From a virus: DNA of 64,000 nucleotides. The translations under genes were made by a program, and so were the position numbers. A model generated the notes under the pieces. The model ran no database searches. It was not told the DNA's origin and was given only the letters and a program-made list of their open reading frames with translations. The stretch is from IMG/VR virus record IMGVR_UViG_3300022666_000353, positions 29,840 through 93,839 of that record. One strand, given 5' to 3'. The stretch's first letter is position 1; each line of letters opens with the position of its first letter. Shown here in pieces: positions 6,600 to 58,920 of the stretch.

Positions 6600-6849
6600 A
6601 ACAAAAAAGCCCCCGGTCTCCCAGGGGCTCTTTCTGTTCGTCTTCTACGTGGACATCGCGTCGTCGTTTCTTGTGATTATATTTGTCACTGTGACACATA
6701 TAGCAGGCGTGGCGGTGACCCGACAGATGGCGTTTTTCGTACCACCAGTCGGGGGGTTCTTCATCCCCCCAGTAGCCCACGCGGACGGCTTCCCGCTTTC
6801 TCCGCAGACTAACCCGCTGTGTCCTTCGTCTGCGTTCTCTTCTGTCCAC
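6538..6849 (-). CDS. basic hypothetical protein with HxCxxC
   Basis: SD GGAGGT before GTG at 6849; Arg-rich. Confidence 0.5.
   Translation of the reverse strand: MDRRERRRRTQRVSLRRKREAVRVGYWGDEEPPDWWYEKRHLSGHRHACYMCHSDKYNHKKRRRDVHVEDEQKEPLGDRGLFCFTQLKKYTKGLRPRILTTRL
6603..6634. terminator. bidirectional intrinsic terminator
   Basis: AAAAAA-GCCCCCGG-TCTC-CCAGGGGC-TCTTT between convergent genes. Confidence 0.7.
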
Positions 6850-7210
6850 GTGTAGACCTCCTATTCGGTAATATTGCTCTTTTGGCCTTTCTTCGGGTCG
6901 GGGGTTTGCGTTCTCCCACAAGATGAAGTCCCCCACCTACCGGCTCTGGCAGTACAAGATTTTCTATCAGAGCCTTTCCCAACCGTGCCGCCGCGGTTAC
7001 TTTATTCACAAAGTCCACACTGTCATCTACAGTCGTGGTGTCATCACCCGGGACAACGGGCCCGGATAGTATGTCTATTGTCTCTTGGTAACTTAGTTGC
7101 CCAAGATAGAACATTTGGGACACAGCGAGAAGGCGTGCCACTCTAAGTCGGGGTAAATCAGCGTTCACAGTTTCTTTATTGTCCACCCAATACTGTGCCC
7201 GTCTACCCAC
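6809..7210 (-). CDS. hypothetical protein
   Basis: ORF within the leftward gene string. Confidence 0.45.
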   Translation of the reverse strand: MGRRAQYWVDNKETVNADLPRLRVARLLAVSQMFYLGQLSYQETIDILSGPVVPGDDTTTVDDSVDFVNKVTAAARLGKALIENLVLPEPVGGGLHLVGERKPPTRRKAKRAILPNRRSTRGQKRTQTKDTAG

Positions 7211-7410
7211 TGTCGGCTCTCCAGAACAGGCACGTTGTCAAACTGAAACACGACAACACCATCCCACGGCCTGCGCTCGAAGCTGACCATCCGCTGTGAC
7301 CATTCTTGCATTGAGCCACATTGTTCAAAGTACGGTTTAAGCGCCTCCTCAATTGCCTGGTAGTGCGCGGCCCGATGCTCGTATACCTGTTCCAAGAAGC
7401 TGTCAAACAT
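7165..7410 (-). CDS. hypothetical protein
   Basis: ATG overlaps the stop codon of the upstream gene. Confidence 0.5.
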   Translation of the reverse strand: MFDSFLEQVYEHRAAHYQAIEEALKPYFEQCGSMQEWSQRMVSFERRPWDGVVVFQFDNVPVLESRQWVDGHSIGWTIKKL

Positions 7411-8477
7411 TATACCTTCCGCATGTAATTCCAGGTGACAGACAGGGCCGTCCAACCACGCTCATGGCGGCCCCAGGTGTACACGTAACCTCTGGCGTCT
7501 GTAACGTTTTTGGTCTCCAGCATTTCAACCCGTTCGTCTTCCTTCAACTTACCTACGACTTCCCCATTAATGTCTGGGGTCTTGCGAATACGCAGGTCGT
7601 CCACATTGCTGGCGTAAACACCAAGATTTGACACAGGGGGCTCCGGCGTGATAACTGCTGGCGTGAACCGTAACCAGTCTACCAGGGCCGTGGGTGTACC
7701 ATTAAAGAAGTGCAGCGCAGGAGGGTACTGTGTCCCTTCCATGCCGGTGTAACGCTTCGCCCATTGTACCATTTTCCAGGTGGCATGTCCCGGCGTAGGA
7801 ATAGGAAAGTTCAATGCTGGGATGTGGGTGTTCTTCAGTGTGTCCCAGGTTGCCGGAGTGTTCGACATGGGCACAGGCTGTACCATCACCAGGTCCTTCG
7901 ACCGTCCCTGACTGGCAAGCCAGGTCACCAATTCTGTACTGGCTTCAATCAGGCTGATAGGCATCATAAACAGAATAGGGACCGGAGTGCCCTGGTAGCT
8001 GAACTGCGGGTCTTTCAGTATCCAGGCATAGAAGGTCTCCAGCTTGCCCTTCACGAACACATTACTCTCGCGGTATCCGTCGCGCCCGGTGTCGTACAGT
8101 CGCAGGACGATACCGTGGAACGATTTGCCTGCCACCTTATTCCGCATGGCGTGTTTAAAGCCTTTGTACTGCCAGTCGGACTCCGGGCTACCTGCCTGGT
8201 AGATGTCCGTGTCAGGCCGGAAGTTGTGCACCGCAAACAGCGGAACCCCGGCGCGGTACGCCTTGTCTACATTGGCTGAAAACTGGTCGTCCACGTAGGT
8301 GCCCATATCATATTGACCACCAGTGGTATCCAGTTGGTAGCCGTCACTGGCGCGGGCCAGGACAAAATCTACACCACCGGCGACCATCTTTCCGATGTCT
8401 ACACTACCGTTATTTTTATTGACCTCTACGCCCAGAGCCAACTTTGTGGGGTCAATCCCACTTCCAATACTACCCAT
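7410..8477 (-). CDS. GH25-like (lysozyme) barrel + C-terminal SH3b; catalytic acids appear degenerate
   Basis: GVDFVLARASDG, D.QFSANVDKA..AG, WKMVQW; SH3b LRIRKTP..GEVVGKL...GW. Confidence 0.75.
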   Translation of the reverse strand: MGSIGSGIDPTKLALGVEVNKNNGSVDIGKMVAGGVDFVLARASDGYQLDTTGGQYDMGTYVDDQFSANVDKAYRAGVPLFAVHNFRPDTDIYQAGSPESDWQYKGFKHAMRNKVAGKSFHGIVLRLYDTGRDGYRESNVFVKGKLETFYAWILKDPQFSYQGTPVPILFMMPISLIEASTELVTWLASQGRSKDLVMVQPVPMSNTPATWDTLKNTHIPALNFPIPTPGHATWKMVQWAKRYTGMEGTQYPPALHFFNGTPTALVDWLRFTPAVITPEPPVSNLGVYASNVDDLRIRKTPDINGEVVGKLKEDERVEMLETKNVTDARGYVYTWGRHERGWTALSVTWNYMRKV

Positions 8478-8498
8478 AGTTACTCCTTTCATAGTTAG

Positions 8499-8705
8499 TT
8501 ACCAATTCATTACTACCCGTATCAAGGCGGCAGCAGTTATTAGCGTACCCAAGATAACGCCCACTACCCAGAACAACAGTCGAATAGCGTCCGCTAATGG
8601 CATTCCCATACCAACAGACGCCGCAGTCGCTAAACCCAATAACACCGCGAGTACCGAAAAGAACAACGAACGTATTACAACCCACCCCCACTTAATGCTT
8701 TTCAT
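8499..8705 (-). CDS. small 2-TM membrane protein
   Basis: Two hydrophobic helices; lies directly upstream of the GH25-like gene. Confidence 0.6.
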   Translation of the reverse strand: MKSIKWGWVVIRSLFFSVLAVLLGLATAASVGMGMPLADAIRLLFWVVGVILGTLITAAALIRVVMNW

Positions 8706-10094: not shown

Positions 10095-10905
10095 CCCAGT
10101 CTTCACCAATTTCCAGCTTTGAACGCATTGTGTCCCACACATACCCCGAGTTAGACGTGTCCTCTGGCTTACAATTCAGAGCGGACAGCCCCGCATCATC
10201 TTCTGATACGAACCAGGCGATGTGTTCGAACGGACTCATGTGCCCGTTATATAGAAGACGTTGGGCCAGTTCAAAGTTATCTCCGTCGTTCTTACCGGAG
10301 TACGTCACACGGGCAATGCGCCCAGCAGCTTCCATAGGGTGCCCGCCGAACGGGACGTGTACCCCGCTATACTGCCAGTTGATGGTGTCAATAACATGCT
10401 TGACGGAACGTGCAAATATTTGCATGGCTGTGTCCGCGTTAGTCGTCAGGCGAAGTTCCAGAAACTTTTCCCAGGCGTGTTCGGTTCCGGTGATAATCCC
10501 TGTAACCATTTTAATTGTCGGCAACAGCCGATTAGCCTGTTCACGAGAAACCCCAAGCTCGGTCAACAGGTTTACGTAGGATACTGCGTCTTCCCAGGCT
10601 TGTTCCCACACACGCGATGCTAAGATTTGTGTGTCCTCTGGTAGTGCGGCTCCCACGCTCATTCCCGGGCGGTCCTCATAAAACGTTTCCGGCGTGTAAT
10701 GTCCCATGCCAACATGGCGGTCAGGTCGCTGTGCGCGTGAGCTAGAAGCGTTGCGGGCAAAACGTCGATGCGTCAAAATCTCGGTCCAGATGTAGACCGG
10801 CAAGTGAACCTGTAACGTAATTAAACCGTTATACGCGTACGGTTCGCCCCGCGTGGCAAGCACAGGTAGCACCGTCATTGCATTATTAGTTTCCGTCATC
10901 GTCAC
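10081..10905 (-). CDS. thyX: FAD-dependent thymidylate synthase
   Basis: EILTHRRFARNASSSRA signature, EQANRLLP, ARVTY, GHMSPFEH. Confidence 0.85.
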   Translation of the reverse strand: MTMTETNNAMTVLPVLATRGEPYAYNGLITLQVHLPVYIWTEILTHRRFARNASSSRAQRPDRHVGMGHYTPETFYEDRPGMSVGAALPEDTQILASRVWEQAWEDAVSYVNLLTELGVSREQANRLLPTIKMVTGIITGTEHAWEKFLELRLTTNADTAMQIFARSVKHVIDTINWQYSGVHVPFGGHPMEAAGRIARVTYSGKNDGDNFELAQRLLYNGHMSPFEHIAWFVSEDDAGLSALNCKPEDTSNSGYVWDTMRSKLEIGEDWVDFS

Positions 10906-12196: not shown

Positions 12197-12434
12197 CGTC
12201 CTCCTCCTTTGCCATTCGGATGATGTCAGCCAGGGTCTCAATTATTTCTCTGCGAATGTCTGGGTCTATTTCTTCAAACCCATGCTTAATACCGCGCCGG
12301 TCACAAAGGTTTGCTACAACACCACGGGCCGCCCGGTAAGCCCAGTCTCCCTCAACTACAAACCCTTCTCCATCCGGGGCATCATACGGCCACTGTGTCC
12401 CTGCCTCAAGGTTCCATTTTGCGTAATCGGTCAC
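12183..12434 (-). CDS. hypothetical protein
   Basis: SD AAGGAGG; DRRGIK motif. Confidence 0.6.
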   Translation of the reverse strand: MTDYAKWNLEAGTQWPYDAPDGEGFVVEGDWAYRAARGVVANLCDRRGIKHGFEEIDPDIRREIIETLADIIRMAKEEDDGKK

Positions 12435-12733: not shown

Positions 12734-12805
12734 AGCCCCCACCCAGACGTGCGCTGGGTTCTCCTGATTACAGGTCAGGTGCGTCACTATATACGCTTTA
12801 GGGGC
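12734..12805 (-). tRNA. tRNA-Thr(UGU), atypical (C33, T-loop CGCACGU)
   Basis: Cloverleaf: GCCCCTA/TGGGGGC, GCGT/ACGC, CCTGA-CCTGTAA-TCAGG, CCCAG/CTGGG. Confidence 0.75.
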
Positions 12806-12811
12806 AGTCAA

Positions 12812-12883
12812 AGCCGAAGGAGAGATTTGAACTCTCAACCTACCCGATACGAACGGGCTGCTCTACCGTTGGGCTACTTCGGC
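12812..12883 (-). tRNA. tRNA-Thr(CGU)
   Basis: GCCGAAG/CTTCGGC, GCCCG-TTCGTAT-CGGGT, GAGAG-TTCAAAT-CTCTC. Confidence 0.9.
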
Positions 12884-13024
12884 GTACGGGTACGGGCATT
12901 GCGACAGAGGCTCGTTAGGTAGTGGCCCTAGATTTGTTATGCGCTTCCTGCTGCGGCAAGGGGAACCACTCGCGCTTCCACCCACTCCGGCTTGTATCCC
13001 GGTTTGTACGTCCTTGACCCGTTA
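12884..13024 (-). ncRNA. unassigned structured RNA A
   Basis: Closing stem ACGGGT/ACCCGT; AGTGGTTC/GGGCCACT; CTTGC-CGCA-GCAGG; no plausible ORF. Confidence 0.45.
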
Positions 13025-13060
13025 GTTTTAAAAATAGGACACAGCGACCTGTGTCCTTCT

Positions 13061-13172
13061 GCACCAGGTTTACTACCACCTCACGGATACTGTTTAGCTA
13101 TTCGACTATCCGCGGTTCATCGAACGTGCTTTAGCAAGGTCTTCTTTGTACTTGAGAAGACGAGCCTGGTAC
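13061..13172 (-). ncRNA. unassigned structured RNA B
   Basis: GTACCAGG/CCTGGTGC closes arms GTCTTCT/AGAAGAC and CGCGGATA/TATCCGTG. Confidence 0.55.
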
Positions 13173-13176
13173 ATAG

Positions 13177-13244
13177 TAGCGGGGGAGAGGGTCGAACTCT
13201 CTTAAGGAAGGTTATGGGCCTGCCGGGTTCCGAACCACCCCGCT
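13177..13244 (-). tRNA. tRNA-Met(CAU)-like with collapsed D-arm
   Basis: AGCGGGG/CCCCGCT-A, AGG-CCCATAA-CCT, GAGAG-TTCGACC-CTCTC; D region only GTTCGGAAC; 68 nt. Confidence 0.65.
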
Positions 13245-13249
13245 TCAAA

Positions 13250-13453
13250 TCAACTAACTTTTACGTACCTAATTTCTTTTGCTTGTCGTTCTTCCGTCTG
13301 TCCTACGTAGTACGCAGCCACAATCAAAGCATCCACATTGGACATGTCCACGGCCTTACCATACAACTGACCTGCGGCAATCTTTTCCTTAATGGTCCGT
13401 GCCATGAACTCAATCGAAAGTTTCTCTACATCCTGATACGGGCCCATAATCAT
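13250..13453 (-). CDS. hypothetical protein inside the RNA operon
   Basis: SD AGGAG; 67 aa. Confidence 0.55.
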   Translation of the reverse strand: MIMGPYQDVEKLSIEFMARTIKEKIAAGQLYGKAVDMSNVDALIVAAYYVGQTEERQAKEIRYVKVS

Positions 13454-13477
13454 TCTCCTGGTTTTGCTGGCCTAGAG

Positions 13478-13612
13478 TGGTCATCCAGCGCGGGGTCAGT
13501 GCTCGAACCCTTTGTACGGTGCTTCTTCCGTCAGTAGGATTGAACAGCGGGCCTGTTCTCCCCAGCAAGTCCAGTTGCAACGACTGTCGGCTATCACTGT
13601 GTGCCGAATGAC
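13478..13612 (-). ncRNA. unassigned structured RNA C
   Basis: 10-bp closing stem GTCATTCGGC/GCTGGATGAC then CA; arms GAACAG/CTGTTC, ACGG/CCGT, GGGTT/GACCC. Confidence 0.6.
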
Positions 13613-13616
13613 TAGG

Positions 13617-13688
13617 CGGGCTGGGAGCGTCTCGAACGCTCACTTCCCGTTTAAACGGCGGGTGTTCTGCCTAATGAACTTCCAACCC
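13617..13688 (-). tRNA. tRNA-Lys(UUU)-like, atypical anticodon loop
   Basis: GGGTTGG/CCAGCCC-G, GTTC/GAAC, CCCGC-CGTTTAA-ACGGG (G33, C31.A39), GAGCG-TTCGAGA-CGCTC. Confidence 0.7.
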
Positions 13689-13722
13689 GTGTGGACACAG
13701 TCGCCGCTGTGTCCGTTTCGTG

Positions 13723-14082
13723 CTAGTTAATTTCGTGGTACTCCAGCACCGCCACATCGGGGAACCGGACGTAGCCTTCGTCCGCGTCAAAGTAATACAG
13801 TTCTGCCGCGTTCAGCGGGGCAGGCCAACGCTCTTTCCACATCACCACCATTGCGCCCGCCTCTTCTTCCGTCACCGTGCCGGTGGACGCCAGGTAATTC
13901 GCCAGGTTGCGAACCGCACTCAACGCGGCCTCATACTTTTTCTGCGCCCGTTCGAACGTGCCGATTGCGGTGTTCTGCCACTCCTGCCAGGGGCCGTCAT
14001 CGGACAGCACCCGCACACCATCTTCAACCACACGGGCCGTGATTTTCTCCGAACACCAATCTTTCACTACTTCGATATACAC
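13723..14082 (-). CDS. hypothetical protein inside the RNA operon
   Basis: SD AGGAGG before GTG at 14082. Confidence 0.65.
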   Translation of the reverse strand: MYIEVVKDWCSEKITARVVEDGVRVLSDDGPWQEWQNTAIGTFERAQKKYEAALSAVRNLANYLASTGTVTEEEAGAMVVMWKERWPAPLNAAELYYFDADEGYVRFPDVAVLEYHEIN

Positions 14083-14118
14083 GTGTAATCCTCCTAAACT
14101 AGTAGAATAAAGGACCAG

Positions 14119-14212
14119 AGCGGGAGAGTGGACTTGAACCACTACCTCCTCCACTGCCTGTTTAAGCTACCAGTCACAGTGGCGTGCTGTACCGCACTAT
14201 ACACCACCCCGC
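14119..14212 (-). tRNA. tRNA-like RNA with Gly-type acceptor and extended anticodon arm
   Basis: GCGGGG/CTCCCGC-U, D arm GTGT/GCAC, T arm AGTGG-TTCAAGT-CCACT; anticodon arm is 32 nt. Confidence 0.65.
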
Positions 14213-14258
14213 ATAATAGGGACACGGGCAATCCTTAGTCATGCCGCTGTGTCCCATA

Positions 14259-14353
14259 CCGCCCATCCGTCTTTCCCCGTCCTTCCCCGGTCTGGTTTCC
14301 CCTAATCCCTGTTTCCAGGGGAATGGTAGAACTCTCAGTCACGTGATGGGCAG
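14259..14353 (-). ncRNA. unassigned structured RNA D (G-run rich)
   Basis: CTGCCCATC/GATGGGCGG closing stem; CCCTG-GAAA-CAGGG; three GGGGAA repeats. Confidence 0.5.
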
Positions 14354-14357
14354 TGAG

Positions 14358-14443
14358 TGGTGACGGCTGGATTTGAACCAGCATTACCCATGTGGGAACC
14401 TGTTTTACAGACAAGCGCGACTAACCGTATTCGCATCGTCACC
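14358..14443 (-). tRNA. tRNA-Tyr(GUA)
   Basis: GGTGACG/CGTCACC-A, CTTGT-CTGTAAA-ACAGG, long variable arm, TTCAAAT loop. Confidence 0.9.
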
Positions 14444-14479
14444 GTAAATAAACTAAATTTTTGTGGTACACCAAAAGAC

Positions 14480-14560
14480 CAATCTCCGGGGGACTAAGGC
14501 GGTCAGACCCTAGTCCCCCTTTACCTGGAGGTTGAAAATGAAGGGGCGGTCAGACCCCTA
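14480..14560 (-). ncRNA. twin-hairpin RNA E with identical UCUGACCG loops
   Basis: AGGGG-TCTGACCG-CCCCT and GGGGGACTAGGG-TCTGACCG-CCTTAGTCCCCC. Confidence 0.55.
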
Positions 14561-14561
14561 G

Positions 14562-14636
14562 AGAGCGGGGCAGGGGTTGAACCTGCTACCTCCTGGTTGT
14601 CTTACCCAGGGCTCCTACCGCGGAGCTTCCCACTCT
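14562..14636 (-). tRNA. tRNA-like RNA with 9-nt anticodon loop (identity undetermined)
   Basis: GAGTGGG/CCCGCTC, GCTC/GAGC, CCTGG-GTAAGACAA-CCAGG, GCAGG-TTCAACC-CCTGC. Confidence 0.7.
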
Positions 14637-14747
14637 GGTCGAGCGTCCCAGCGTCGTCTGGGTTAGCCGGTCACGTTGGTGGCCTCCCGCTGAACCCGGC
14701 GCGGTACACCTGCCATACCGCTGGCGTCCGTTCACCACATCACTCGA
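14636..14747 (-). ncRNA. enlarged tRNA-like RNA F ending in ACCA
   Basis: TCGAGTG/CGCTCGA followed by CCA; CCCAG/CTGGG arm next to the acceptor; long TGAAC..GCGGTA/TACCGC..GTTCA arm. Confidence 0.55.
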
Positions 14748-14768
14748 AGTAAATGTCCCAGTCCACAA

Positions 14769-14843
14769 AGCCCCGTCAGGGTCGGGTATCTAACCTGGAT
14801 ACCACCACTCTATATTTCAAGAGTTTCGATGGGTGGGCGGGCT
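14769..14843 (-). ncRNA. tRNA-sized structured RNA G
   Basis: AGCCC/GGGCT closing stem; ACTCT/AGAGT and GGTATC/GATACC arms. Confidence 0.4.
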
Positions 14844-14972
14844 TATCACTGGTTTGTCCCTGTCGCTGCCGGTCTGCTTGCCGACTGTCATCACCACTCC
14901 GCGCTAAATCCAGGTGACGGAAAGGAGAGATGGTTACTCCTCTGGCGGGCTGTCTTTTCCAGCGGTCATTGT

Positions 14973-15106
14973 CCGACTGAATTGTGTCCGGCTACCGAGT
15001 TTTTTGATGTGTTGGTAAATGGATTGGGTATGCGCCAAAGAGCCTATCCTCTGTAATAGCTCCTGATAAGTCACCAACACGTCTCTGACCCGTTCCAGTC
15101 AGTCGC
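14973..15106 (-). ncRNA. rod-shaped RNA H with central bubble
   Basis: CGACTGA/TCAGTCG closing stem, A-rich internal loop, GTGTTGGTGA/TTACCAACAC stem. Confidence 0.5.
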
Positions 15107-15113
15107 AACCAAA

Positions 15114-15185
15114 AGGCACTTGAGTGATTCGAACACTCGTCTGCGCCGTACAACCGGCGCGTTTTCCCAATTAAACTAAAGTGCC
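15114..15185 (-). tRNA. tRNA-like RNA with Cys-type acceptor and 6-nt anticodon loop
   Basis: GGCACTT/AAGTGCC-U, GTTT/AAAC, CGCCG-GTTGTA-CGGCG, GAGTG-TTCGAAT-CACTC. Confidence 0.7.
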
Positions 15186-15274
15186 GTCGTCCCTACGTTC
15201 CCGTCATTACGGGTCTATGGGTTGCCTCAGTCCCAACTCTGGAGGTGAACATGACTGGCCACACCTGGCCAAGG

Positions 15275-15348
15275 CGGTGCCGGGGGGGAGTTGAACCCAC
15301 AACCTCCTGTTTTGGAGACAGGTGCTCTGCCAATTGAGCCTCCGGCCC
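15275..15348 (-). tRNA. tRNA-Trp(CCA)
   Basis: GCTC/GAGC D arm, CCTGT-CTCCAAA-ACAGG, TTCAACT loop; acceptor stem imperfect. Confidence 0.85.
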
Positions 15349-15350
15349 GT

Positions 15351-15562: not shown

Positions 15563-15638
15563 TAAATTAAGTTTTCTTCCCAACGCACCTCCCACGGGTT
15601 CTATGGGTTGCCTCTGTCCCTTCTTGTCCAACTCGCAG

Positions 15639-15901: not shown

Positions 15902-15902
15902 T

Positions 15903-16456: not shown

Positions 16457-16510
16457 AATAATATACGGTTGTTAATGTGCTATTAAAAACATTTTATATT
16501 TCTATGTATA

Positions 16511-16539
16511 ATTATAGCGCGTTAACCACCAGAAGTCAA
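16511..16539 (-). promoter_or_regulatory. sigma70 promoter of the RNA operon
   Basis: TTGACT-N17-TATAAT. Confidence 0.85.
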
Positions 16540-49018: not shown

Positions 49019-52000
49019 TGGGACTGACTGCTTCAGATATTAATCAAATGGTACTGCGGTTTCTTCCGCGTGTTGGCGACAGCACGGTAGGCGGAACCAT
49101 CATACCTAACGCAACCAACACGCATAACCTGGGGTCAGCCGCGAACCGGTTTGACACCATCTACGCACGCCAGATTGTAGCGGATTCATTGTCGGGTACG
49201 GGTGGCAGCGCGGACACAGTTGACGGCTTTCACGCGTATTCCACCCCCAATGCTTCGGCGCTGCTGGCCCTGGATGCCTCCAGTGTCTTTCCAACATCGG
49301 TATACCCGAACGCATTATTGCGTGATGGCTCCCGGTCTCTGACCGGCAATCTCGCTGTGTCCGCTGGCGTTACCATCGACGGCGTAGACATCAGTGCCCA
49401 CGCAGTAGACGGCACAATCCACCATACCGGTGGAATGAGCGCAGACGACCACAGCCAGTACGTACACACGTCTTTGTCCCGCACCATCACGGCATCACAC
49501 CAGTTTGCACCTGGTTCGGCGGCGGCTCCATTTACCCTGGGGGTAAACGCGCAAGGTCAAACGGTTACTGGTTTTAAGGCTGACCAACTAAATAAGTCGG
49601 TTATTGCGGGAAGCGGTCTAACAGGCGGCGGAGCTTTGACTGCCAGTGTTACGCTTAACGTTGGAGCAGGAAACGGTATTACGGTTAACGCCGATGATGT
49701 GGCTGTTAATTTGAAGTCCACATCTGGACTCGAAGTAGACGGGACCGGCCTGGCTCTGGCCGATACGGTGGCTGGTTCAGGTCTTACGGTTGCCAGCAAG
49801 GTGCTGTCGGTTGGCGCGGGTACGTTAATTTCTGTTGCTGCTGACACGGTTAGTTTATCCAACGGCAGCGCACAGTATCAGGTCCCCATGACAGGGGCTA
49901 CTCCGTTTACTCCGGCGTGGACCAACCTGTCTACGCTGGCGGGTAACGGCCTGGTGTTCTCCAGCGGAACATTCGCAGTCGGAGCAGGCACGGGTATTAC
50001 GGTCAATGCTGACGACATCCAGGTAAAATTAAAAACACTGTCTGGTTTAGAGGCAGACAGCGCGGGCCTGGCCGTGCAAGACGCAATTGCTGGTAATGGT
50101 TTGTCAATTACCAATAAGGTCCTGGCAGTTAACGTGGCGTCCCCTCTTGCCATCGTGAGTGATACCGTTACTCTGTCTGGTGGTACGGCTCAGTACCAAA
50201 CCCTGGTGACTGGCGCAGGCCCTAACTATACTGGGACCTGGACGGATTTAAACACCATGGCTGGTGCGGGTATTGCGTTCAATACTGGCGTGTTTGACAT
50301 CGGAGCAGGCAATGGTATTCAGGTCAATGCTGACAGTATCCAGGTAAAACTTCAGTCACCGTCTGGGCTAACTGCGGACAGTTCTGGCCTGGCGATTGCG
50401 GACACAGTGGCGGGTGCCGGGTTAACTATTGCCAGCAAGGTGTTGGCTGTTGGGGCCGGTGCGCTTATCACTGTAGCCGCTGACACGGTGGGTGTTGCGA
50501 ACGGCTCCGCGCAGTGGCAGGTTCCGGTCACCGGGGCCTCCCCGTTTACGCCTGCGTACACTTCATTATCCAGTTTGGCTGGAGACGGCCTGACCTTCTC
50601 GACCAATTTCACAGTAGCACTTTCGGCCACGTCGGGGCTCCAGTTGGTGGGTACGTCCCCCAACAAGACCCTGGAAATTAATGACACCGTCGCAGGGAAC
50701 GGCCTGACAATCTCAAGCAAAGTTCTGGCGGTCGGAGCGGGCACATTGATTACAGTCGGCTCAACCGCTGTGTCCCTCTCGAACGGCACCGCACAATACC
50801 AGGTCCCTGTTACCGGAGCCAACCCGTATACACCTGCTTATACAGCATTAAGCACATTTGCCGGAGTCGGTTTAAATTTCACGGGCGGCCAGTTTGTTCT
50901 TGGCACCCCTTCTACCCTGACTGCTGGAACCACCAACAGTTCGTCAGGTACGACGCACAGTCACGCAATTACCGCCAGTGCAAACCCAGGGGCGGCAGAG
51001 TTCATCCTCAAGACTACTCCTGCGGGCGGATTAACCCTGGCAAGTGCGGCCATTACTGGCGCACTAACAGTAGGACAAGACCTCACGGTTGGGACAAACG
51101 TTTTGTTTGTTGACCAGAGTGAGGGGTTGGTGGGTATCAACTGTGTTCCTGACCCGCAGTTCCAATTGGATGTGAACTCGAACATCCGCGCTCGTGGTTA
51201 CATTGTGGGTAAGCACGCCATCCAGCTTAAAGACGCCAAACTGATTGCTCACTTCGATGGTCCTGAACCCTTTGAAACGAACTTTACTGGTGAGGCTACT
51301 GGACACATGGGCCAGGTGGCTACTCTGTCTGGTGGGTATGCCTTCCGGCCTGGTAAATTCCAGAAGGGCCTACAGGTGGCAGAGGCTACCACCAACGAAA
51401 TCACCAACCCGTCGTTTGAGTACGGAGCAAACGGAGCCAGTGTTACGTCGGATGGTTGGACGCTGTCGCAAAGTGGAACCGGGGCAACGGCCACGTATGA
51501 TACCTCTCGTGCGTACATTGGTAGCCAGTCCTGTAAATTGGTTGCGTCTACCGTAAGTAATTCAAACGTTTACCGGGCTGTTTCGGTAGCAGACGGTGAG
51601 ACCATTACTGTACAGGCGCGAGTATATCGCACCGGTGCGGTTAGTTCAAAGCTCCGCATTTTTGACGCCACAAACTCTGTGGAACGGGCTACGGCTTCCA
51701 CAACGGCTACCGACACCTGGGAATACTTGACCTGCACTTGGACGAATAACCTGGGCTCAACCGTTAATGCTGCTCTCATGGTTACCAACTCAGCAGCGGA
51801 CGGTACATCGGCTATCTGGGTGGACGCCTGCCAGTTAGAGCGCAAGGCATATTCCACGCCATACTGCGATGGCTCTATGGGCAGCGGGCATACCTGGGCG
51901 GGCACGGCGCACCTGTCTGCCTCCAGCCGCACTAACGCCGTTGTGTCCTACTCCGGTGTAAACAACATCAACCTTAACGCGGGTACGGTGTCCCTGTGGT

Positions 52001-55000
52001 ACTACAATGACGGAACACACAAACGGGGCTACGCCCGTGCTTTCCAGTATCGCATTGACGCCAACAACTACATTGGTATTAATGTAAGCTCTACAACCAA
52101 TAATCCGTATGCTATTGATATGTCAGGTGGAGTATCCGTTCAGACTTCTTCGGGTGCGACGGCTGCTGTAGTTGGATGGAACTACCTGGTTGCCACGTGG
52201 AAAACAGGTGGACAGTTTAAGTTGTATTTGAACGGTCAGCTAACTGGTACTACGCCTTCCTACACGGCTCCTGTGGGTTCAGGGGGTACGATTGCCATCG
52301 GTCGTGACGTGACCGGTGTGTCGCAGCACCTCAATGATGTCATAGACGACGTGGTTATTGTGGGTCGAGAACTAACCGTAGATGAAATTCGGGCCATTTA
52401 CGAAAGTGATGCCCCTGTTTTTGCGGAGAGTTCAACCTGGGCCTTTAAATCTGCTTCTCAAATTGTATGGGCGGATGAAGAAGGTTTGTGGGCCATTGAT
52501 ACAAGCGGGAATCCAGCCTTCGGCGTCTCTGGCGTAGACGGCAAGAGTTGGGGTGGGAACACCCTGGACAAGGGCGACATTCTCATGGGGCGCTCGTCAA
52601 ACTATTTGAAGTGGGACGCTTCCGCTGGGCTTATCAGCCTGTATTCTCCGGGGTCGTCACTGACGAAAGAGGAATATTTCGACGGCACCACGGAAGAAGT
52701 CAATAACCGCTGGACTCCCTACCTGGGCAGCACGTCACTTCTCTCGGTCACTTCTGGCGGTTATGCTGGCGGCAACGTTTTACGCATCGGTGACAACTCC
52801 GGCAATGATGAGTGTCGGATAATCAGCAACCAATCTATCCCGTTTGACCCGAACAAGCTATATCGGGTATTCTTCCGCGTTCGCCTGGTGGCGTCTAGCA
52901 GTCCGGGCACCGTTTATCTTGGGGTAGCGGGGCGCAATGCCACAGATACAGCCTGGGTAAACGTGACGGGAAGCGATGTCAATACATCACAGCACTATTT
53001 TGCAGCCAGCAATCAGGTACTAACCGCGGTGGGCGAGGGTGGCGCATGGTCTGAATTTACTGGTTATTTCCGAGGGGTAAACACGACAGGTAATGGCGGC
53101 GTTCATGCTCTGGCCTCTGCCCCTGGCACGCTGCACGAAAGCAGCAGGTATTTCAGGCTATTCTTGTGGGTAAACTGGTTGGCTAAACCGGGCATCGTTG
53201 AGGTTGACGAAATCCGTGTAGACATCATGCCCAATTATTCGGACAGTCCGTTCGCGCACTCGTCTGACACCACGACCATTGATGGTGGAAAGATTTTTAC
53301 CGGGTCTATCACGGCTGATAAAATCACCACCGCCACCCTGAGTGCAATTGTGGCTGACCTGGGTACGGTTACAGCCGGGTCAATTGTGGTAGGGACCACC
53401 AATAAACTCTGGCTCAATGACGCCGCGGACGGTGCACTAGCCATCGGTGGTACAGTAAAGGGAAGTGCGCCGTTTCGGGTTACTGCGGCAGGGGTGTTGA
53501 CTGCTACTTCGGGAACGATTGGTGGCTGGTCCATTACTTCCACGCAAATCAATAGCTCTGGCATCACAATGATTGCCGATGCTACCGCAGCCAGTAATAA
53601 AATCTACGTGGGAACCGGGACGTACAACAGTTCGGACACAGCGTTCTACGTGGATGGGTCGGGCAGGTTCTCTCTGAAGAACAAACTGGTGTGGGACGGG
53701 TCCTCCCTGACCATTGATGGCGGGGTTACTGCGACCACGGGTTCAATTGGTGGTTGGACGATTGCTACCAACACCCTGTCCGCTACCAACATCCTTCTTG
53801 ACTCGAACAGCAAATACTTCCGTATCGGGGCTACACCTGCCTCCATGACCTTCGGGTCTACAGACGGGGTGCAGATTGAGTACAACGGTGGGGACCCCAG
53901 GGTCTACTTCGGTAATGGAACAAACCGGTACTTTAGTTTTGACGGAACCAACATTTCCTGGCAGGGAGCCAGCACCAGCTTAACCACGGGTGGTTTGTTC
54001 ACGGCCAACAACGCCAGCATCACCGGCGCAATCACCGCCAACTCTGGTTCAATCGCGGGCAGTTTCACAGTGGGCGCGAACCTGTCTGTGTCTACGTCGG
54101 GCAGTTTCTCCTCTGGTGCGACGGCGTACAACACAGGAACAGGCTGGTGGATGGAGTACAACGCGGGAACACCCCGGTTTTTCTTAGGTAACGCAGCCGG
54201 CAACAAACTTACCTGGAATGGTAGCAGCCTGGACATCACAGGCAATATTACAGCTAACGGAACCGGTCAGATTGGTGGCTGGACCATTGCTTCGACGGGT
54301 CTGTCAAGTGGTGGTATCAACCTGGTGTCTAGTGGCACTGCCGTCAACAATAAAATTTATGTGGGTACCGGCAACTACGCCAACGGGGACACAGCGTTCC
54401 TGGTGGATGGTTCGGGACGTATGTCCCTCAAGGATAAGCTGGTGTGGGACGGCACAAAGCTCAGTGTGAGCGGAGCCGTGGTTTTGGGTGCTGGTGTTGG
54501 GTTCACAGTTTCTAATCCTAACCTGCATCTGCCGTTTGATGGCCCCGCACCGTATGAAACTGACTACCAGGTAACGCTCACTGGTCACCTGGGGCAGCGC
54601 CCTGTGTCCACTTCGGGGGGTCTGATTGGTCGCCCAGGTAAATACGGCAAAGGCTTACAGGTGGCAGAAGCCACAACCAACGAATTGACGAACCCCTCAT
54701 TCGAGGCTGGAAACGTGGGAGACGCTGTTACATCCTACGGGTGGTCTTATTCACAAACGGGTACGGGTGGGACAGCCACAAATGACAACTTACGGGCATA
54801 CGTGGGGGTGCGTTCGTGCAAAATTCTGGCATCCAGCACTGGAGTCAGCAGTATCTACAAGACCGTGTCTGTAACAAACGGCGACACCATCACGGTACAA
54901 GCGCGGGTATGGAGAGGCAGTGCAATTGCCACACGTTTGCGCGTCTACGACCATACGAACAACACCACCAGGGTCACAACAAACGCTGCGGAAACAAATA

Positions 55001-56895
55001 CGTGGGAACTGTTGACGGCGACGTGGACAAACAACACCGGTGGAACCGTTAATGCCTCTATCATGGTGACCAACGACGGAGCCGACAGTGCATCCATGAT
55101 TTGGGTGGACGCCTGCCAGGTAGAACGTAAGACCCGGCCTACTCCGTACTGCGATGGTTCGTTGGGTGCGGGTCACAGTTGGTCCGGTACTGCACATGCG
55201 TCAACCAGTTCTCGCACGGCTGCCGCTGTGTCCTATAACAACAGTAACATTATCGACAGCACACCTGGAACATTCGCTGCCTGGGTATATATGTATGGAT
55301 ACCCCGTCAGCGGTGAGACGTCTTATCTGTTCGACAGTCGGGATATATCAAACACCAACAGCCCGTCATTGTTAATCGGAGCATCTGGTGGTGTAGTGTG
55401 GCAGTATAACGGCGCGAGTGTAATCTCCACCGCGGCGTCGTCTGTTGGCGTAAGAGCCTGGTATCACGTAGCCGTAACGTACGACTACACCAGCGGCTCG
55501 CAAGTGCTTTATGTTAATGGTACTCAGATTGGCACGTCTAGTTCTACCACACCCCCGTCGAATTTCGGCGCAAAGCTGTTTATTGGAAGCCGCTATACCA
55601 GCGTCTTTATGTTGAACGGAGTAATTGATGACGCAGTGTTTGTTGACCGGGTTCTATCAGCCGACGAGGTGTACGCCCTCTACAATTCTGGGCAGGCCAT
55701 TCAAGCCACGACCAGCCCGTTCCAGCTTATGCTCACTGGCTCCGGCCTGGGAAAAGTATGGGGTGATTCATCCGGTTTGTTCGGGCAGACTTCTAGTGGA
55801 ACAGCGTCGTTTGCCTTAGTCAACGAGAACGGTATATCCTGGGCAGGCGGGACCCTGGACGCGGGCGATGTGATGATTGGTACGTCAACGACGTACTTGA
55901 AGTGGGACACCAGCCTGGCGGAGCTCGAAGTAAAGGGCAAGATTTCTGCTACCAGCGGGTCTATTACCAACACATTGTCCGTCCTGGGTACGCTGGATGT
56001 GGGGTCAAGTGGTGTTATCAAGTCAGGTGCTACGGGGTACGACAGCGGGACTGGCTGGTGGTTGGATTATAACGCTGGTTCTCCGCGGTTCTTCATCGGC
56101 AACAGCGCCGGGAATAAACTGACGTACAGCGCCGGGACACTGTCTTTGTCAGGAACAGTAAGTGCGGCCACCATCACAGGGGACGCAGCGGTTACTACTG
56201 GTAAAATCACCGCAGCCAGCGGCGCGGTGCGGCTGGATTCGAACGGCGTGTCCGTCAACATGGCAGGTCTCACGAACGGCGTCCGGTGGTACACGTCATC
56301 CGCGTTCAGTACACAGGCCGGCGAAATTTACGTGTCCTCCGACACATCTGGCGAACCGATGATTGACCTTCGTACCGGAAGCAGCCCAACAACCGGTGTT
56401 AAAATTAACGGTAACTATTCTGGCATACGTGCGCCCAATGTGTACGTTGACAACGCGGGTGCTGGCGGGGGTGGGTATTTTATTGGGTCCACTGCGGGAG
56501 GGTTTTCACGTGGAAACTTGTTTATCCCGATTGTCCCAGGAAACACCAGCACGTCGTTTGATGGGGACGCGTTCTCCACTACGTCTGCTACGAACTATAC
56601 CGTGAACACTTACTTTTCGAGTGTACCAAACATAGCTAAGGCAATTTTAGTACGTGTGTCTTGCCGAGACAGTGGAAGTGCGTCAAACAACAGTTTGTAC
56701 GTAGCCTTGGGAACCAGTGACGACACGACGAACTACCCGCTGATTGTGCGCCCGGCTGGGTTGCCAAATGACTACTTCGCGGAGGGCCAAGGAATCGTTC
56801 CCCTCAACTCAAGTGGTCAGTTCCGGTTTCAGTGTGTGGCGTCGGGCACGGGTACGCTGGATGTGTATATCCAAGTATGGGGGTACTTCCTGTAA
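49018..56895 (+). CDS. giant tail fibre/receptor-binding protein with two CBM-LamG modules
   Basis: G/T/S-rich repeats; TN.ITNPSFE...D..Q.E carbohydrate-binding modules; LamG W.H.A.T..LY.NG..IDD. Confidence 0.85.
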   Translation: MGLTASDINQMVLRFLPRVGDSTVGGTIIPNATNTHNLGSAANRFDTIYARQIVADSLSGTGGSADTVDGFHAYSTPNASALLALDASSVFPTSVYPNALLRDGSRSLTGNLAVSAGVTIDGVDISAHAVDGTIHHTGGMSADDHSQYVHTSLSRTITASHQFAPGSAAAPFTLGVNAQGQTVTGFKADQLNKSVIAGSGLTGGGALTASVTLNVGAGNGITVNADDVAVNLKSTSGLEVDGTGLALADTVAGSGLTVASKVLSVGAGTLISVAADTVSLSNGSAQYQVPMTGATPFTPAWTNLSTLAGNGLVFSSGTFAVGAGTGITVNADDIQVKLKTLSGLEADSAGLAVQDAIAGNGLSITNKVLAVNVASPLAIVSDTVTLSGGTAQYQTLVTGAGPNYTGTWTDLNTMAGAGIAFNTGVFDIGAGNGIQVNADSIQVKLQSPSGLTADSSGLAIADTVAGAGLTIASKVLAVGAGALITVAADTVGVANGSAQWQVPVTGASPFTPAYTSLSSLAGDGLTFSTNFTVALSATSGLQLVGTSPNKTLEINDTVAGNGLTISSKVLAVGAGTLITVGSTAVSLSNGTAQYQVPVTGANPYTPAYTALSTFAGVGLNFTGGQFVLGTPSTLTAGTTNSSSGTTHSHAITASANPGAAEFILKTTPAGGLTLASAAITGALTVGQDLTVGTNVLFVDQSEGLVGINCVPDPQFQLDVNSNIRARGYIVGKHAIQLKDAKLIAHFDGPEPFETNFTGEATGHMGQVATLSGGYAFRPGKFQKGLQVAEATTNEITNPSFEYGANGASVTSDGWTLSQSGTGATATYDTSRAYIGSQSCKLVASTVSNSNVYRAVSVADGETITVQARVYRTGAVSSKLRIFDATNSVERATASTTATDTWEYLTCTWTNNLGSTVNAALMVTNSAADGTSAIWVDACQLERKAYSTPYCDGSMGSGHTWAGTAHLSASSRTNAVVSYSGVNNINLNAGTVSLWYYNDGTHKRGYARAFQYRIDANNYIGINVSSTTNNPYAIDMSGGVSVQTSSGATAAVVGWNYLVATWKTGGQFKLYLNGQLTGTTPSYTAPVGSGGTIAIGRDVTGVSQHLNDVIDDVVIVGRELTVDEIRAIYESDAPVFAESSTWAFKSASQIVWADEEGLWAIDTSGNPAFGVSGVDGKSWGGNTLDKGDILMGRSSNYLKWDASAGLISLYSPGSSLTKEEYFDGTTEEVNNRWTPYLGSTSLLSVTSGGYAGGNVLRIGDNSGNDECRIISNQSIPFDPNKLYRVFFRVRLVASSSPGTVYLGVAGRNATDTAWVNVTGSDVNTSQHYFAASNQVLTAVGEGGAWSEFTGYFRGVNTTGNGGVHALASAPGTLHESSRYFRLFLWVNWLAKPGIVEVDEIRVDIMPNYSDSPFAHSSDTTTIDGGKIFTGSITADKITTATLSAIVADLGTVTAGSIVVGTTNKLWLNDAADGALAIGGTVKGSAPFRVTAAGVLTATSGTIGGWSITSTQINSSGITMIADATAASNKIYVGTGTYNSSDTAFYVDGSGRFSLKNKLVWDGSSLTIDGGVTATTGSIGGWTIATNTLSATNILLDSNSKYFRIGATPASMTFGSTDGVQIEYNGGDPRVYFGNGTNRYFSFDGTNISWQGASTSLTTGGLFTANNASITGAITANSGSIAGSFTVGANLSVSTSGSFSSGATAYNTGTGWWMEYNAGTPRFFLGNAAGNKLTWNGSSLDITGNITANGTGQIGGWTIASTGLSSGGINLVSSGTAVNNKIYVGTGNYANGDTAFLVDGSGRMSLKDKLVWDGTKLSVSGAVVLGAGVGFTVSNPNLHLPFDGPAPYETDYQVTLTGHLGQRPVSTSGGLIGRPGKYGKGLQVAEATTNELTNPSFEAGNVGDAVTSYGWSYSQTGTGGTATNDNLRAYVGVRSCKILASSTGVSSIYKTVSVTNGDTITVQARVWRGSAIATRLRVYDHTNNTTRVTTNAAETNTWELLTATWTNNTGGTVNASIMVTNDGADSASMIWVDACQVERKTRPTPYCDGSLGAGHSWSGTAHASTSSRTAAAVSYNNSNIIDSTPGTFAAWVYMYGYPVSGETSYLFDSRDISNTNSPSLLIGASGGVVWQYNGASVISTAASSVGVRAWYHVAVTYDYTSGSQVLYVNGTQIGTSSSTTPPSNFGAKLFIGSRYTSVFMLNGVIDDAVFVDRVLSADEVYALYNSGQAIQATTSPFQLMLTGSGLGKVWGDSSGLFGQTSSGTASFALVNENGISWAGGTLDAGDVMIGTSTTYLKWDTSLAELEVKGKISATSGSITNTLSVLGTLDVGSSGVIKSGATGYDSGTGWWLDYNAGSPRFFIGNSAGNKLTYSAGTLSLSGTVSAATITGDAAVTTGKITAASGAVRLDSNGVSVNMAGLTNGVRWYTSSAFSTQAGEIYVSSDTSGEPMIDLRTGSSPTTGVKINGNYSGIRAPNVYVDNAGAGGGGYFIGSTAGGFSRGNLFIPIVPGNTSTSFDGDAFSTTSATNYTVNTYFSSVPNIAKAILVRVSCRDSGSASNNSLYVALGTSDDTTNYPLIVRPAGLPNDYFAEGQGIVPLNSSGQFRFQCVASGTGTLDVYIQVWGYFL

Positions 56896-57350: not shown

Positions 57351-57402
57351 CTTATCGGTATGTCGTGTGAAAAAGACCGTCAAATTTGATGGTCTTTTTC
57401 TT

Positions 57403-57428
57403 TTTCCACACTTATTCGTTTGAAGAGT
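57403..57428 (+). promoter_or_regulatory. late-promoter motif before the lysis module
   Basis: TTTCC-N9-CGTTTGAAGAGT. Confidence 0.7.
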
Positions 57429-57461
57429 GTAGGTTGGATTCCTTTTATTGGAGTTGTTTTT

Positions 57462-57857
57462 ATGGGTGACATTGACACGTTGAACGAGCGGCTCATGGAT
57501 GTTCAGAGATTATTGGTTCGTATGGAAGCCGCACAGCAGGCGCAAGATAGACACTTGATTTCATTAGACGCGTCGGTAGAGGAGTTAAATCGTACGGTGC
57601 GTGGACACAACGGCACTCCGGGTCTGGTCACGGATGTTGCCCTTGTTAGAGAGGCTGTACAGAAGATGCAGGTAGTTCCTGCTGCCATCCCAGCCAGCCC
57701 CAAGACACAGAATGACGAAGACGAGAGTAATAACGGGTCGCGTATGTGGGTTATTGAAAAACTTTTTCTTCCTGTAGTGGTGCCCGCGATTACTGCCGCA
57801 ATTATCTATCTTATTTTTAGTGTGATTCCCCACGTATCGCAGGTCCCTGTCCCGTAG
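57462..57857 (+). CDS. coiled-coil protein with C-terminal TM (lysis accessory)
   Basis: G.NG.PGL motif; C-terminal TM; precedes the endolysin. Confidence 0.6.
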   Translation: MGDIDTLNERLMDVQRLLVRMEAAQQAQDRHLISLDASVEELNRTVRGHNGTPGLVTDVALVREAVQKMQVVPAAIPASPKTQNDEDESNNGSRMWVIEKLFLPVVVPAITAAIIYLIFSVIPHVSQVPVP

Positions 57858-57867
57858 AAGGCGGCGT

Positions 57868-58920
57868 ATGAAAGAACTGGGTTTTTTAATCTGGCGTTTA
57901 AATAACATCCGGCCCATTGACGACACGATTGAGAAGTTGCTGGCTGTCGGGGCTAGGTGGGTGAGTATTAAAGTTAGGGACGGTTCATCTAATTTTAATT
58001 ACTACGACGCTGATGGCCGGTGGACTGGAAACCCAGACTATCTTAGTCAGGTTATTCAGAAAATGAAAGCTGCCGGCCTTGAAGTAGGCGGATGGCAGTT
58101 TGTGTACACCGACCGCATGAAACAGCAAGCCGAAGCTGCCCGCGCCGCTGTGTCCACATTTGGACTCAGCCACTGGCTGATAGACGCTGAGGAATACGCT
58201 CCCCTGGGCGCGATGTGGAAGCAAGACCCGGCTGCTGCCAGCAAGGCGCAGCAGTATATGGACAACTTACAGCTTCCAGCGGGTGTTGAAGTAGGGCTGT
58301 GTTCATACCGGTTCCCATCTGTTCACCGACCCTTCCCGTTTGGGACATTTATGCGCCATCGTGCCAGTACCATCACGGCCCCCCAAGTGTACTGGATGTT
58401 AGCAAACAATCCCGGGGCCCAACTAGAGCGGTCAAAGAGGGAACACGATGCTATTCACGTCTTACCCATGGTTCCCATTGGCGCTTCATTTCGTGAGCAC
58501 GGTTGGGAGCCAGGACCAGGAGAGATTAGAGAGTTTATTACCACTGCCAGGCGGCTGGGTATGCCGGCGTGGGGGTTCTGGGACCTGGACGAGGCGCTCT
58601 ATCGAGAAGATTGGTTAACAGAAATGGCGGGTGTACCGCTTCCACCCCCACCCCCGGCAAAGGAGCCTGAAATGGGTCAACATACGATTTACCACGTGGA
58701 AACTTCGGGACTGAATGTTAGAGACAACATCATTCCGAGTAGAGTTTTTGGTAAGGTACCCGGCAAGGTGTACCGTTCCAGTAAGGTGTGGTTCACCTTA
58801 AGTGAAGGTTCACAAGTAGAAGCATTGGAAGAAGTTACGGACGGACCCAACGTTTGGGTTCGCGTCGGACAGCGACAGTTTGTCGCAAAGATTTACGATA
58901 ATACAGTTTTCCTAAAGTAG
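57868..58920 (+). CDS. endolysin (glycoside-hydrolase barrel + SH3-like domain)
   Basis: IK..DG, GGWQF.Y, IDAE, PQVYW, Pro linker, LNVR. Confidence 0.8.
   Translation: MKELGFLIWRLNNIRPIDDTIEKLLAVGARWVSIKVRDGSSNFNYYDADGRWTGNPDYLSQVIQKMKAAGLEVGGWQFVYTDRMKQQAEAARAAVSTFGLSHWLIDAEEYAPLGAMWKQDPAAASKAQQYMDNLQLPAGVEVGLCSYRFPSVHRPFPFGTFMRHRASTITAPQVYWMLANNPGAQLERSKREHDAIHVLPMVPIGASFREHGWEPGPGEIREFITTARRLGMPAWGFWDLDEALYREDWLTEMAGVPLPPPPPAKEPEMGQHTIYHVETSGLNVRDNIIPSRVFGKVPGKVYRSSKVWFTLSEGSQVEALEEVTDGPNVWVRVGQRQFVAKIYDNTVFLK

Follow-up and report, generated by a model that had tools for sequence, protein, structure and literature searches.

What keeps one asymmetric word of 10 to 12 letters, (GC)CGCTGTGTCC, in place tens of times in the genome of a temperate phage? 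The question was raised by a DNA stretch of 64,000 nucleotides (the window), which is the last 64 kb of the 93,839-bp IMG/VR provirus record IMGVR_UViG_3300022666_000353 (positions 29,840 to 93,839) and which a preliminary description had found to be rich in this word. We counted the 10-mer CGCTGTGTCC and the 8-mer core CTGTGTCC in both the window and the whole record, and the 9-mer GCTGTGTCC in the window. The word is kept by pressure on the DNA itself, is private to this phage lineage, and is restricted to one domain of the genome. We propose, with a probability that we put at roughly 40%, that a sequence-specific DNA-binding factor encoded by the phage itself recognizes the word at its many scattered copies and thereby marks or silences the middle and late prophage domains.

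The 10-mer is present 16 times in the window, compared to 0.16 on average and at most 2 in 100 dinucleotide shuffles, and 17 times in the whole record, compared to 0.32 expected under an order-3 Markov model. For the 8-mer core, the window holds 32 copies (2.5 expected) and the whole record holds 40 (4.65 expected under the same model); the excess thus withstood Markov correction on the full record. The window's 32 cores are made up of the 16 10-mers, four 9-mers (at 10427, 33242, 34251, and 48611), and 12 further 8-mers, which matches the preliminary tally exactly, and each of the 10-mers was found again where it had been reported. The word's 7-, 8-, and 9-mers are the commonest of their length in the genome, and (GC)CGCTGTGTCC occurs in phage genes about 50 times above chance. 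A literature search for the word returned PCR primers only.

The copies give the consensus logo G-C-C-G-CTGTGTCC, and nothing is conserved beyond 12 nucleotides, which ruled out an extended or bipartite motif. Variants that are one letter off number 29, compared to 8.4 expected (3.5-fold), and they are allowed only at positions 1, 2, 9, and 10, while the CTGTGT core is invariant. Inside the occupied part of the genome there is about 1 copy per 1.7 kb, with gaps that are indistinguishable from random (coefficient of variation, 0.94 observed and 0.96 simulated), so that regular spacing was rejected. Strand use over the whole record is 26 plus to 14 minus; the skew is confined to the minus-strand arm (16 plus-strand to 5 minus-strand copies) and is absent from the plus-strand arm (9 to 8), which means that orientation tracks transcription in the minus arm only. 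The word is largely orientation-independent, and it is under strong additive pressure.

Gene calling on the whole record gave 137 genes (87% coding), and 33 of the 40 copies (82%) lie within coding sequence, seven to nine being counted as noncoding; hairpin stems in noncoding DNA serve to accommodate two copies. When synonymous codons were shuffled inside each gene, the 10-mer fell from 17 to 3.5 (three of these being the untouched intergenic copies) and the 8-mer from 40 to 12.6; shuffling whole codons had the same outcome. Since the excess is lost in these shuffles, it does not come from amino acid or codon usage, and together with the Markov expectations this rules out a codon, amino acid, or composition artifact. 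The preliminary description had itself named a codon- and amino acid-preserving shuffle and a Markov model as the tests under which the enrichment might vanish, and it did not vanish. Among the places where the word could be encoded synonymously, 14 of 36 carry the 10-mer and, proteome-wide, 33 of 132 carry the 8-mer, that is, 25 to 40%. Sense copies are almost exclusively read as GCT-GTG-TCC (A/P-V-S) because the other sense frames require a cysteine, whereas antisense copies use three frames, and the reading frames quoted earlier (A-V-S, D-T-x, G-H-S, and x-T-Q) were all recovered. At aligned sites, homologues carry other residues (GGQTA versus GGDTA, NLVVG versus NLAVS, and ENKDS versus EDAVS, homologue versus phage), and the word was therefore partly created by amino acid replacement. 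An origin in protein repeats was ruled out, as flanks are common only to the pair at 53634 and 54387; tail fiber peptide repeats are instead the top k-mers of two related phage records (G001 and G002, described below). Taken together, the shuffles, the filled places, and the differing homologue residues show that the selective pressure acts at the DNA level and that the word is kept against coding constraints, in line with the earlier proposal of pressure on DNA rather than protein.

That proposal had also called the signature genome-wide, and here it did not hold: about 30% of the genome is without the word. The word fills a 66-kb arc (genome 22.0 to 88.1 kb) with genes for SSB, RNase H, an NT5C/MazZ-like protein, class II ribonucleotide reductase (RNR), ThyX, and a methylase-Mrr fusion, an RNA operon, and the terminase, head, tail, and fiber genes as well as a 350-amino-acid gene before the holin. 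The remaining 28-kb arc runs from 88.1 kb via the record end on to 22.0 kb and encodes the holin, an exonuclease-like protein, DprA/SLOG, a Cas4-like exonuclease, a primase-polymerase (prim-pol), the tyrosine integrase, an exonuclease, PolA, a ParB-like protein, NADAR, and about 30 small open reading frames (ORFs); its part in the window, 58156 to 64000, holds the genes from the holin to prim-pol and has a promoter word of its own. This part together with the first 22 kb of the record contains 0 of the 17 10-mers and 2 of the 40 8-mers (binomial P = 0.011 and 0.002), and an empty arc this large has a P of about 0.006 after scan correction. Likewise, of the GCTGTGT heptamers, 22 of 47 within the word-filled arc have CC as their next two letters, compared to 0 of 17 elsewhere. 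In tetranucleotide signature (r = 0.85 to 0.89) and in GC content at third codon positions, the word-free arc is the same as the rest, and the replication genes that are conserved in the family lie in it; its composition is thus not foreign. The 94-kb phage encodes a complete tyrosine integrase at the edge of the record and is temperate; because the record begins at the integrase ATG and finishes on a stop codon, circular closure via the integrase was ruled out.

The right-hand edge of the word-filled arc coincides with the end of the late/lysis operon (holin) and with the next promoter word. This promoter word, TATAATTATAGC, is the second commonest word of the genome; it includes a −10 hexamer and is found at nine sites, at window 10061, 16507, 25556, 29038, 56923, and 59769 (genome 39900, 46346, 55395, 58877, 86762, and 89608) and at genome 4673, 16090, and 27047. 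At window 16511 to 16539 it belongs to a TTGACT-N17-TATAAT promoter, and it probably acts as a strong core common to the promoters and so marks out transcription units.

We then asked who else carries the word. The phage has no cultured relatives, megablast gave no match, and its large terminase subunit (TerL) is about 26% identical to those of Bacillus and Staphylococcus myoviruses. Scans with the major capsid protein (MCP) and TerL through IMG/VR and JGI metagenomes recovered relatives at 53 to 74% identity, including three whole records (G001 to G003); no closer relatives were found in IMG/VR, JGI metagenomes, or GTDB genomes, the best matches being 74% for TerL (a partial match) and 63% for the MCP. 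There are 0 to 3 8-mers in each of the three records and 3 in the 309 kb of MCP/TerL-related loci. Their frequent words are fiber peptide repeats or palindromes (CCAGGCCA in G003 is only 4-fold enriched), and since none of the three has a similar dispersed asymmetric word, a family-wide trait with lineage-specific words was ruled out. An IMG/VR scan for the hairpin form of the word, which is described below, gave 83 matches, close to a rough chance estimate; all were lone terminators without further copies, and no second carrier of the word was found there.

When 185,579 species genomes were scanned with an MCP profile, two related prophages with 59 to 61% identical MCPs emerged, one on a 256-kb contig of a Chloroflexia metagenome-assembled genome (MAG) (L045 in G006) and one in an Anaerolineales MAG (L046 in G007). 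The host phylum is therefore probably Chloroflexota, which would be the first host phylum assignment for this phage's family. We counted the 10-mer in an even draw of 401 genomes across the phylum (including G180, G279, G351, G045, G152, and G234, which gave only background counts) and the 11-mer in 201 genomes from the class, with the reversed word as a control. In both samples and in both prophage-bearing MAGs the word is at the level of the control, with 1 to 5 copies per Mb in sampled genomes versus 181 per Mb in the phage; as the phylum was chosen from the two prophages, the host counts hold for this sample only. The only outliers were G101, with a weak 3- to 4-fold excess (about 6 per Mb), and G533, with a contig-end repeat. 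In the latter, a Chloroflexota MAG, CCGCTGTGTCC occurs 17 times, in nearly every case 15 to 134 nucleotides from the end of a contig; it is a repeat, probably an insertion sequence terminus, in which the word is included by coincidence, and not a dispersed signal.

We thus hypothesize that the phage encodes its own reader of the word. This reader would bind duplex DNA sequence specifically and probably as a monomer, because an asymmetric site of 10 to 12 bp fits such a footprint. Many dispersed copies would let it mark, and most likely silence or roadblock transcription over, the prophage's middle and late domains, by analogy with the stoperators of mycobacteriophages and the C1 operators of P1. 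The arc of integrase, replication, and early genes would stay unmarked; dotted over it, instead, is a separate 16-bp palindrome that fits the ParB/KorB-like protein of the phage.

That palindrome family, AGTC(C/T)A(C/T)ATGTGGACT with the form AGTCCACATGTGGACT, lies at gene junctions of the early region (genome 11652, 16157, 21660, 23593, 25973, and 29568), with variants at window 6844 and 17706 and looser GTCCA-N4-TGGAC sites elsewhere in the genome. A ParB/Noc/KorB-like protein is encoded at genome 11873 to 12715 without a ParA, and G003 has a ParB that is 44% identical and ten copies of the parS-like TTTTCACGTGAAA. The combination suggests a KorB-style global regulation. ParB was discarded as the reader of the word, its likely sites being this separate family, and a 259-amino-acid plus-strand gene beside the methylase was discarded as a repressor, as it resembles a DUF2812-type protein and not a DNA binder.

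Several observations weigh against silencing by a dispersed reader. Stoperators occupy short intergenic gaps, whereas most copies of the word (the 33 of 40) are in coding sequence, and their orientation follows transcription in one arm only. The divergent switch region (genome 55343 to 55613) is without a copy, the nearest being at 52505 and 56906, and none of the copies keeps a constant distance to the nine TATAATTATAGC promoter words. No repressor, helix-turn-helix family, or other reader was recognized among the approximately 60 phage proteins that were scanned, most of which are ORFans. Finally, the word might be a host signal limited to a lineage outside our sample, which we regard as improbable.

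A broader possibility, which we rate as rather unlikely, is a virus-private "self-word": a phage reader, be it prim-pol, a recombination nuclease, or a packaging or silencing factor, would favor DNA that bears GCCGCTGTGTCC, and the word would spread across the genes of the phage by selection or molecular drive. Such a spread would resemble that of uptake sequences in Neisseria chromosomes, except that it would take place in one viral lineage and only in the genome part on which the reader acts.

The word could also control nucleases in the manner of Chi, by halting a processive exonuclease or helicase (host RecBCD/AddAB or the phage's Cas4-like or other exonucleases) and so guarding linear or rolling-circle DNA additively. 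This would be consistent with one randomly spaced copy per 2 to 4 kb, with additive buildup in coding DNA, with 16 of 21 minus-arm copies in one orientation, with the several exonucleases that the phage encodes, and with the approximate symmetry of the word-rich arc (about 33 kb each way) about the terminase and switch region, where the ends of virion DNA may lie. However, the Chi of a host enzyme should be enriched in hosts, and this is the case in 0 of 600 sampled genomes; the plus arm is without polarity, and 10 to 12 specified bases exceed any known Chi, the sites known to us having 5 to 8. We therefore doubt this explanation strongly.

Slimmer still are the chances that the word is a priming site. 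Here, prim-pol (window 62950 to 63837) would start synthesis only on this template word, the copies on both strands would be lagging-strand starts, and replication would be limited to phage DNA. Initiation at a specific template sequence is known for the prim-pol of NrS-1. No prim-pol homologue was found in G001 to G003, which also lack the word, or in the IMG/VR scan, and the spacing of 1 to 3 kb per strand is about the size of an Okazaki fragment. Read 3' to 5', the word has GTC after the flanking C, and the pentamer GTGTC, a site of T7 primase, which is an enzyme of an unrelated class. On the other hand, a 28-kb arc would be left unprimed, no strand pattern fits a single fork geometry, and 10 to 12 bases are long for a primase site. 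With no homologue of prim-pol found in the three records or in IMG/VR, its co-occurrence with the word rests on one genome.

Equally poor is the outlook for a signal of the host as a whole (uptake, host Chi, or another architecture word) that belongs to an unsampled lineage and reached the prophage through amelioration or drive. The word does have the form of such signals, being on both strands, with the exact word dominant, in permissive frames, and with inverted pairs in a terminator. Yet it is at background in the 600 Chloroflexota genomes, in both prophage MAGs, and in all related phage DNA that we found, and the other IMG/VR contigs with the hairpin form have no extra copies. The preliminary description had named an uptake or Chi-like site among its options, next to primase recognition and self-marking, and had suggested counting related phages and candidate hosts; that count turned against a host signal. 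Uptake or Chi signaling throughout the host is unlikely because the sampled host phylum is not enriched and because a word-free arc of the same oligonucleotide signature, if it came from the same host, should carry the word as well.

Very improbable, in turn, is that the word is the target of the methylase-Mrr fusion, as a modification or restriction self-mark: the enzyme is a beta-class, Type II/III-like adenine methylase, the bottom strand GGACACAGCG has adenines, and Type III Mod enzymes recognize short asymmetric sites, but 80 homologue loci (1.25 Mb; 42 to 68% identical, full length) are at background (22 8-mers versus about 38 expected and 2 10-mers versus 2.4, although specificity may vary among homologues), and such sites are normally avoided or neutral, whereas this word is enriched and is longer than all Type II/III sites known to us. 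The fusion (window 3941 to 5599, minus strand) has a roughly 110-amino-acid insertion and a C-terminal Mrr-type nuclease domain; with 107 full-length relatives in IMG/VR at 42 to 68% identity, it is a common and apparently uncharacterized phage enzyme architecture. An unrelated methylase-Mrr phage (L161, 3783 to 17079, and L160) has 31 copies of GACGATGGAC in clustered pairs 7 nucleotides apart at many sites, which is a different system of clustered repeats, operator- or iteron-like.

Just as remote is an element that acts in RNA, in which word and complement would be hairpin halves or targets of small RNAs or processing in transcripts: three inverted pairs fold stably in the tRNA/noncoding RNA operon, and in the minus arm 76% of copies place GGACACAG in the mRNA, but lone copies are without a nearby partner, flanks are not conserved, and in both arms pooled the mRNAs carry either strand (about 22 to 12). 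The minus-strand RNA operon (window 12734 to 16504) encodes tRNA-Thr, -Met, -Tyr, and -Trp, one odd tRNA, and an ARAGORN tmRNA call, with very few ORFs, and nowhere is the word clustered more densely than here, with 6 copies in 1.9 kb. All three inverted pairs reported earlier as hairpin stems are real, though they differ in kind. The pair at 13036 to 13057 (minus strand; 10-mer at 13037 to 13046 on the minus strand and 8-mer at 13049 to 13056 on the plus strand) forms a 9-bp stem with a 4-nucleotide GUCG loop and a U-run on the minus strand (−15.6 kcal/mol; z = −3.5) and was called as an intrinsic terminator inside the operon. The pair at 13693 to 13714 (8-mer at 13693 to 13700, minus; 10-mer at 13705 to 13714, plus) forms an 8-bp stem just past the stop codon of a 143-amino-acid gene (−18.6 kcal/mol; z = −3.4) and is without a U-run. 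The third, at 14219 to 14255 between tRNA-Tyr and the 143-amino-acid gene, holds a 10-mer at 14245 to 14254 (plus) and is imperfect (z = −1.9).

The other copies in the window are as follows, from left to right. An 8-mer core at 1773 to 1780 (plus) is intergenic, within a 10+5-bp hairpin, and another at 3970 to 3977 (plus) lies 29 nucleotides from the 3' end of the methylase-Mrr gene. One 133-amino-acid gene has two 10-mers, at 6815 to 6824 (plus; antisense, 8 nucleotides from the stop codon, K-D-T-A) and at 7118 to 7127 (minus; sense, A-V-S). These are followed by a core at 7728 to 7735 (plus) in a 360-amino-acid gene (G-T-Q), a 9-mer at 10427 to 10435 (plus) in a ThyX-like gene (A-D-T-A), and a core at 12393 to 12400 (plus) in an 83-amino-acid gene. 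Three further 10-mers are at 16622 to 16631 (plus; antisense in a 76-amino-acid gene, G-H-S), 22350 to 22359 (plus; antisense in a 146-amino-acid gene, G-T-Q), and 22666 to 22675 (minus; sense in an 82-amino-acid gene, A-V-S). The core at 27067 to 27074 (plus) is intergenic, directly upstream of the large terminase gene, and that at 29289 to 29296 (plus) is noncoding, 15 nucleotides before an Rfam match to the EGFOA small RNA (29311 to 29416; 40.8 bits, gathering score 37.7) in the noncoding stretch after the terminase gene. Two 9-mers lie on the minus strand, at 33242 to 33250 in an 88-amino-acid head module gene (G-D-T-A; closest homologue G-Q-T-A) and at 34251 to 34259, 16 nucleotides into a 376-amino-acid gene (W-T-Q).

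The tape measure gene has a 10-mer at 40926 to 40935 (minus; V-D-T-A), which adjoins the quasi-palindrome GTCCACATTTGGAC, and a 486-amino-acid tail gene has one at 47456 to 47465 (plus; sense, A-V-S, with other residues in homologues). In a 388-amino-acid tail gene we found a core of the variant CCCTGTGTCC at 48115 to 48122 (minus) and a 9-mer at 48611 to 48619 (plus; A-V-S, K-D-S or L-E-S in homologues). The 2,625-amino-acid fiber gene carries cores at 49212 to 49219 and 50400 to 50407 (both minus; A-D-T-V) and, as the variant CCCTGTGTCC, at 54602 to 54609 (plus; P-V-S), together with 10-mers at 49353 to 49362 (plus; A-V-S, V-V-G in the G003 homologue), 50766 to 50775 (plus; A-V-S), 53634 to 53643 (minus; S-D-T-A), 54387 to 54396 (minus; G-D-T-A), and 55224 to 55233 (plus; A-V-S); the similar flanks of 53634 and 54387 may point to one duplicated domain. 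The last 10-mer in the genome, at 58146 to 58155 (plus), is in the 350-amino-acid gene just before the holin and again adjoins GTCCACATTTGGAC. The two copies next to this quasi-palindrome (40926 to 40946 and 58146 to 58166) have a common 21-nucleotide context, CGCTGTGTCCACATTTGGACT, in which the word runs directly into a GTCCA-N4-TGGAC quasi-palindrome; repeats of the latter are present in G003 as well. Apart from the word, the gene at 23198 to 24169 (minus) encodes an NT5C deoxynucleotidase fused to the N-terminal domain of MazZ-type dATP/dGTP diphosphohydrolases; it adjoins the class II RNR and ThyX-like genes and may serve nucleotide pool editing or base modification.

How does the word compare to known systems? 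Cluster A mycobacteriophages have 20 to 30 asymmetric 13-bp repressor sites with a phage-specific consensus, bound by a monomer, and only rep and int are expressed in lysogeny (PMC6550527, PMC9283540). With these stoperators (cluster A; L5 gp71-type monomeric repressor), our phage shares its temperate lifestyle, an asymmetric site of 12 to 13 bp with a lineage-private consensus, tens of copies spread through both arms (about one every 2 kb), and a free integrase region (PMC6550527, PMC9283540). Unlike stoperators, the word is 82% in coding sequence, is oriented in one arm only, occurs in inverted pairs, and has no copy at a promoter or switch, nor was a repressor homologue found. Judged by what defines stoperators, the phage has the asymmetric 12- to 13-bp site, the 20 to 35 copies, and the phage-specific consensus, and it lacks orientation with transcription outside the minus arm and an operator at the early lytic promoter. 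We are thus tentative in saying that the word works like a dispersed protein recognition site, and we do not place it in the stoperator family.

The C1 operators of P1 are 17-bp asymmetric sites, more than 14 of which are dispersed over a 94-kb temperate genome. They resemble the word in genome size, lifestyle, dispersed asymmetric form, and occasional inverted "bivalent" pairs, but they overlap promoters, and the copies of the word do not. The sequence-specific nick sites of T5, tf, and phiKMV-like phages are few and on one strand only; as with the word, a short phage-private consensus is repeated along the genome, whereas the word is on both strands (26 to 14). Chi, read by RecBCD or AddAB and enriched in phages without nuclease inhibitors, is likewise asymmetric, dense, additive, and partly co-oriented (76% in our minus arm), but the word is longer, hosts are not enriched, and its plus arm has no polarity.

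In form, the preliminary description had likened the word to the DNA uptake sequences (DUS) of Neisseria and the uptake signal sequences (USS) of Pasteurellaceae. These too are nonpalindromic words of 10 to 12 nucleotides on both strands, randomly spaced, in permissive frames, with the exact form dominant and with inverted pairs as terminator stems, and that part of the likeness stands, one of our inverted pairs being a terminator. The host-wide density does not: DUS and USS recur at about 1 per kb throughout the host chromosome and are traits of that chromosome and of whole bacterial families, while here neither the 600 sampled genomes nor related phages are enriched and about 30% of the phage genome is without the word. 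Short words that saturate genomes are known from cells (DUS, USS, Chi, and the FtsK-orienting polar sequences, KOPS); those known from phages are for the most part repressor sites that are linked to promoters or lie between genes. Here, in a phage of a poorly studied host phylum, a 10- to 12-mer occupies a quarter to two-fifths of the permissive coding places of one functional domain, with amino acids changed. It could serve as a handle for following this phage lineage in metagenomes, and the identity of its reader would disclose a new mode of prophage silencing or marking, or a sequence-gated replication or nuclease system. Were it a virus-private self-word, it would be the first genomic signature like an uptake sequence to belong to a virus and not to a cell.

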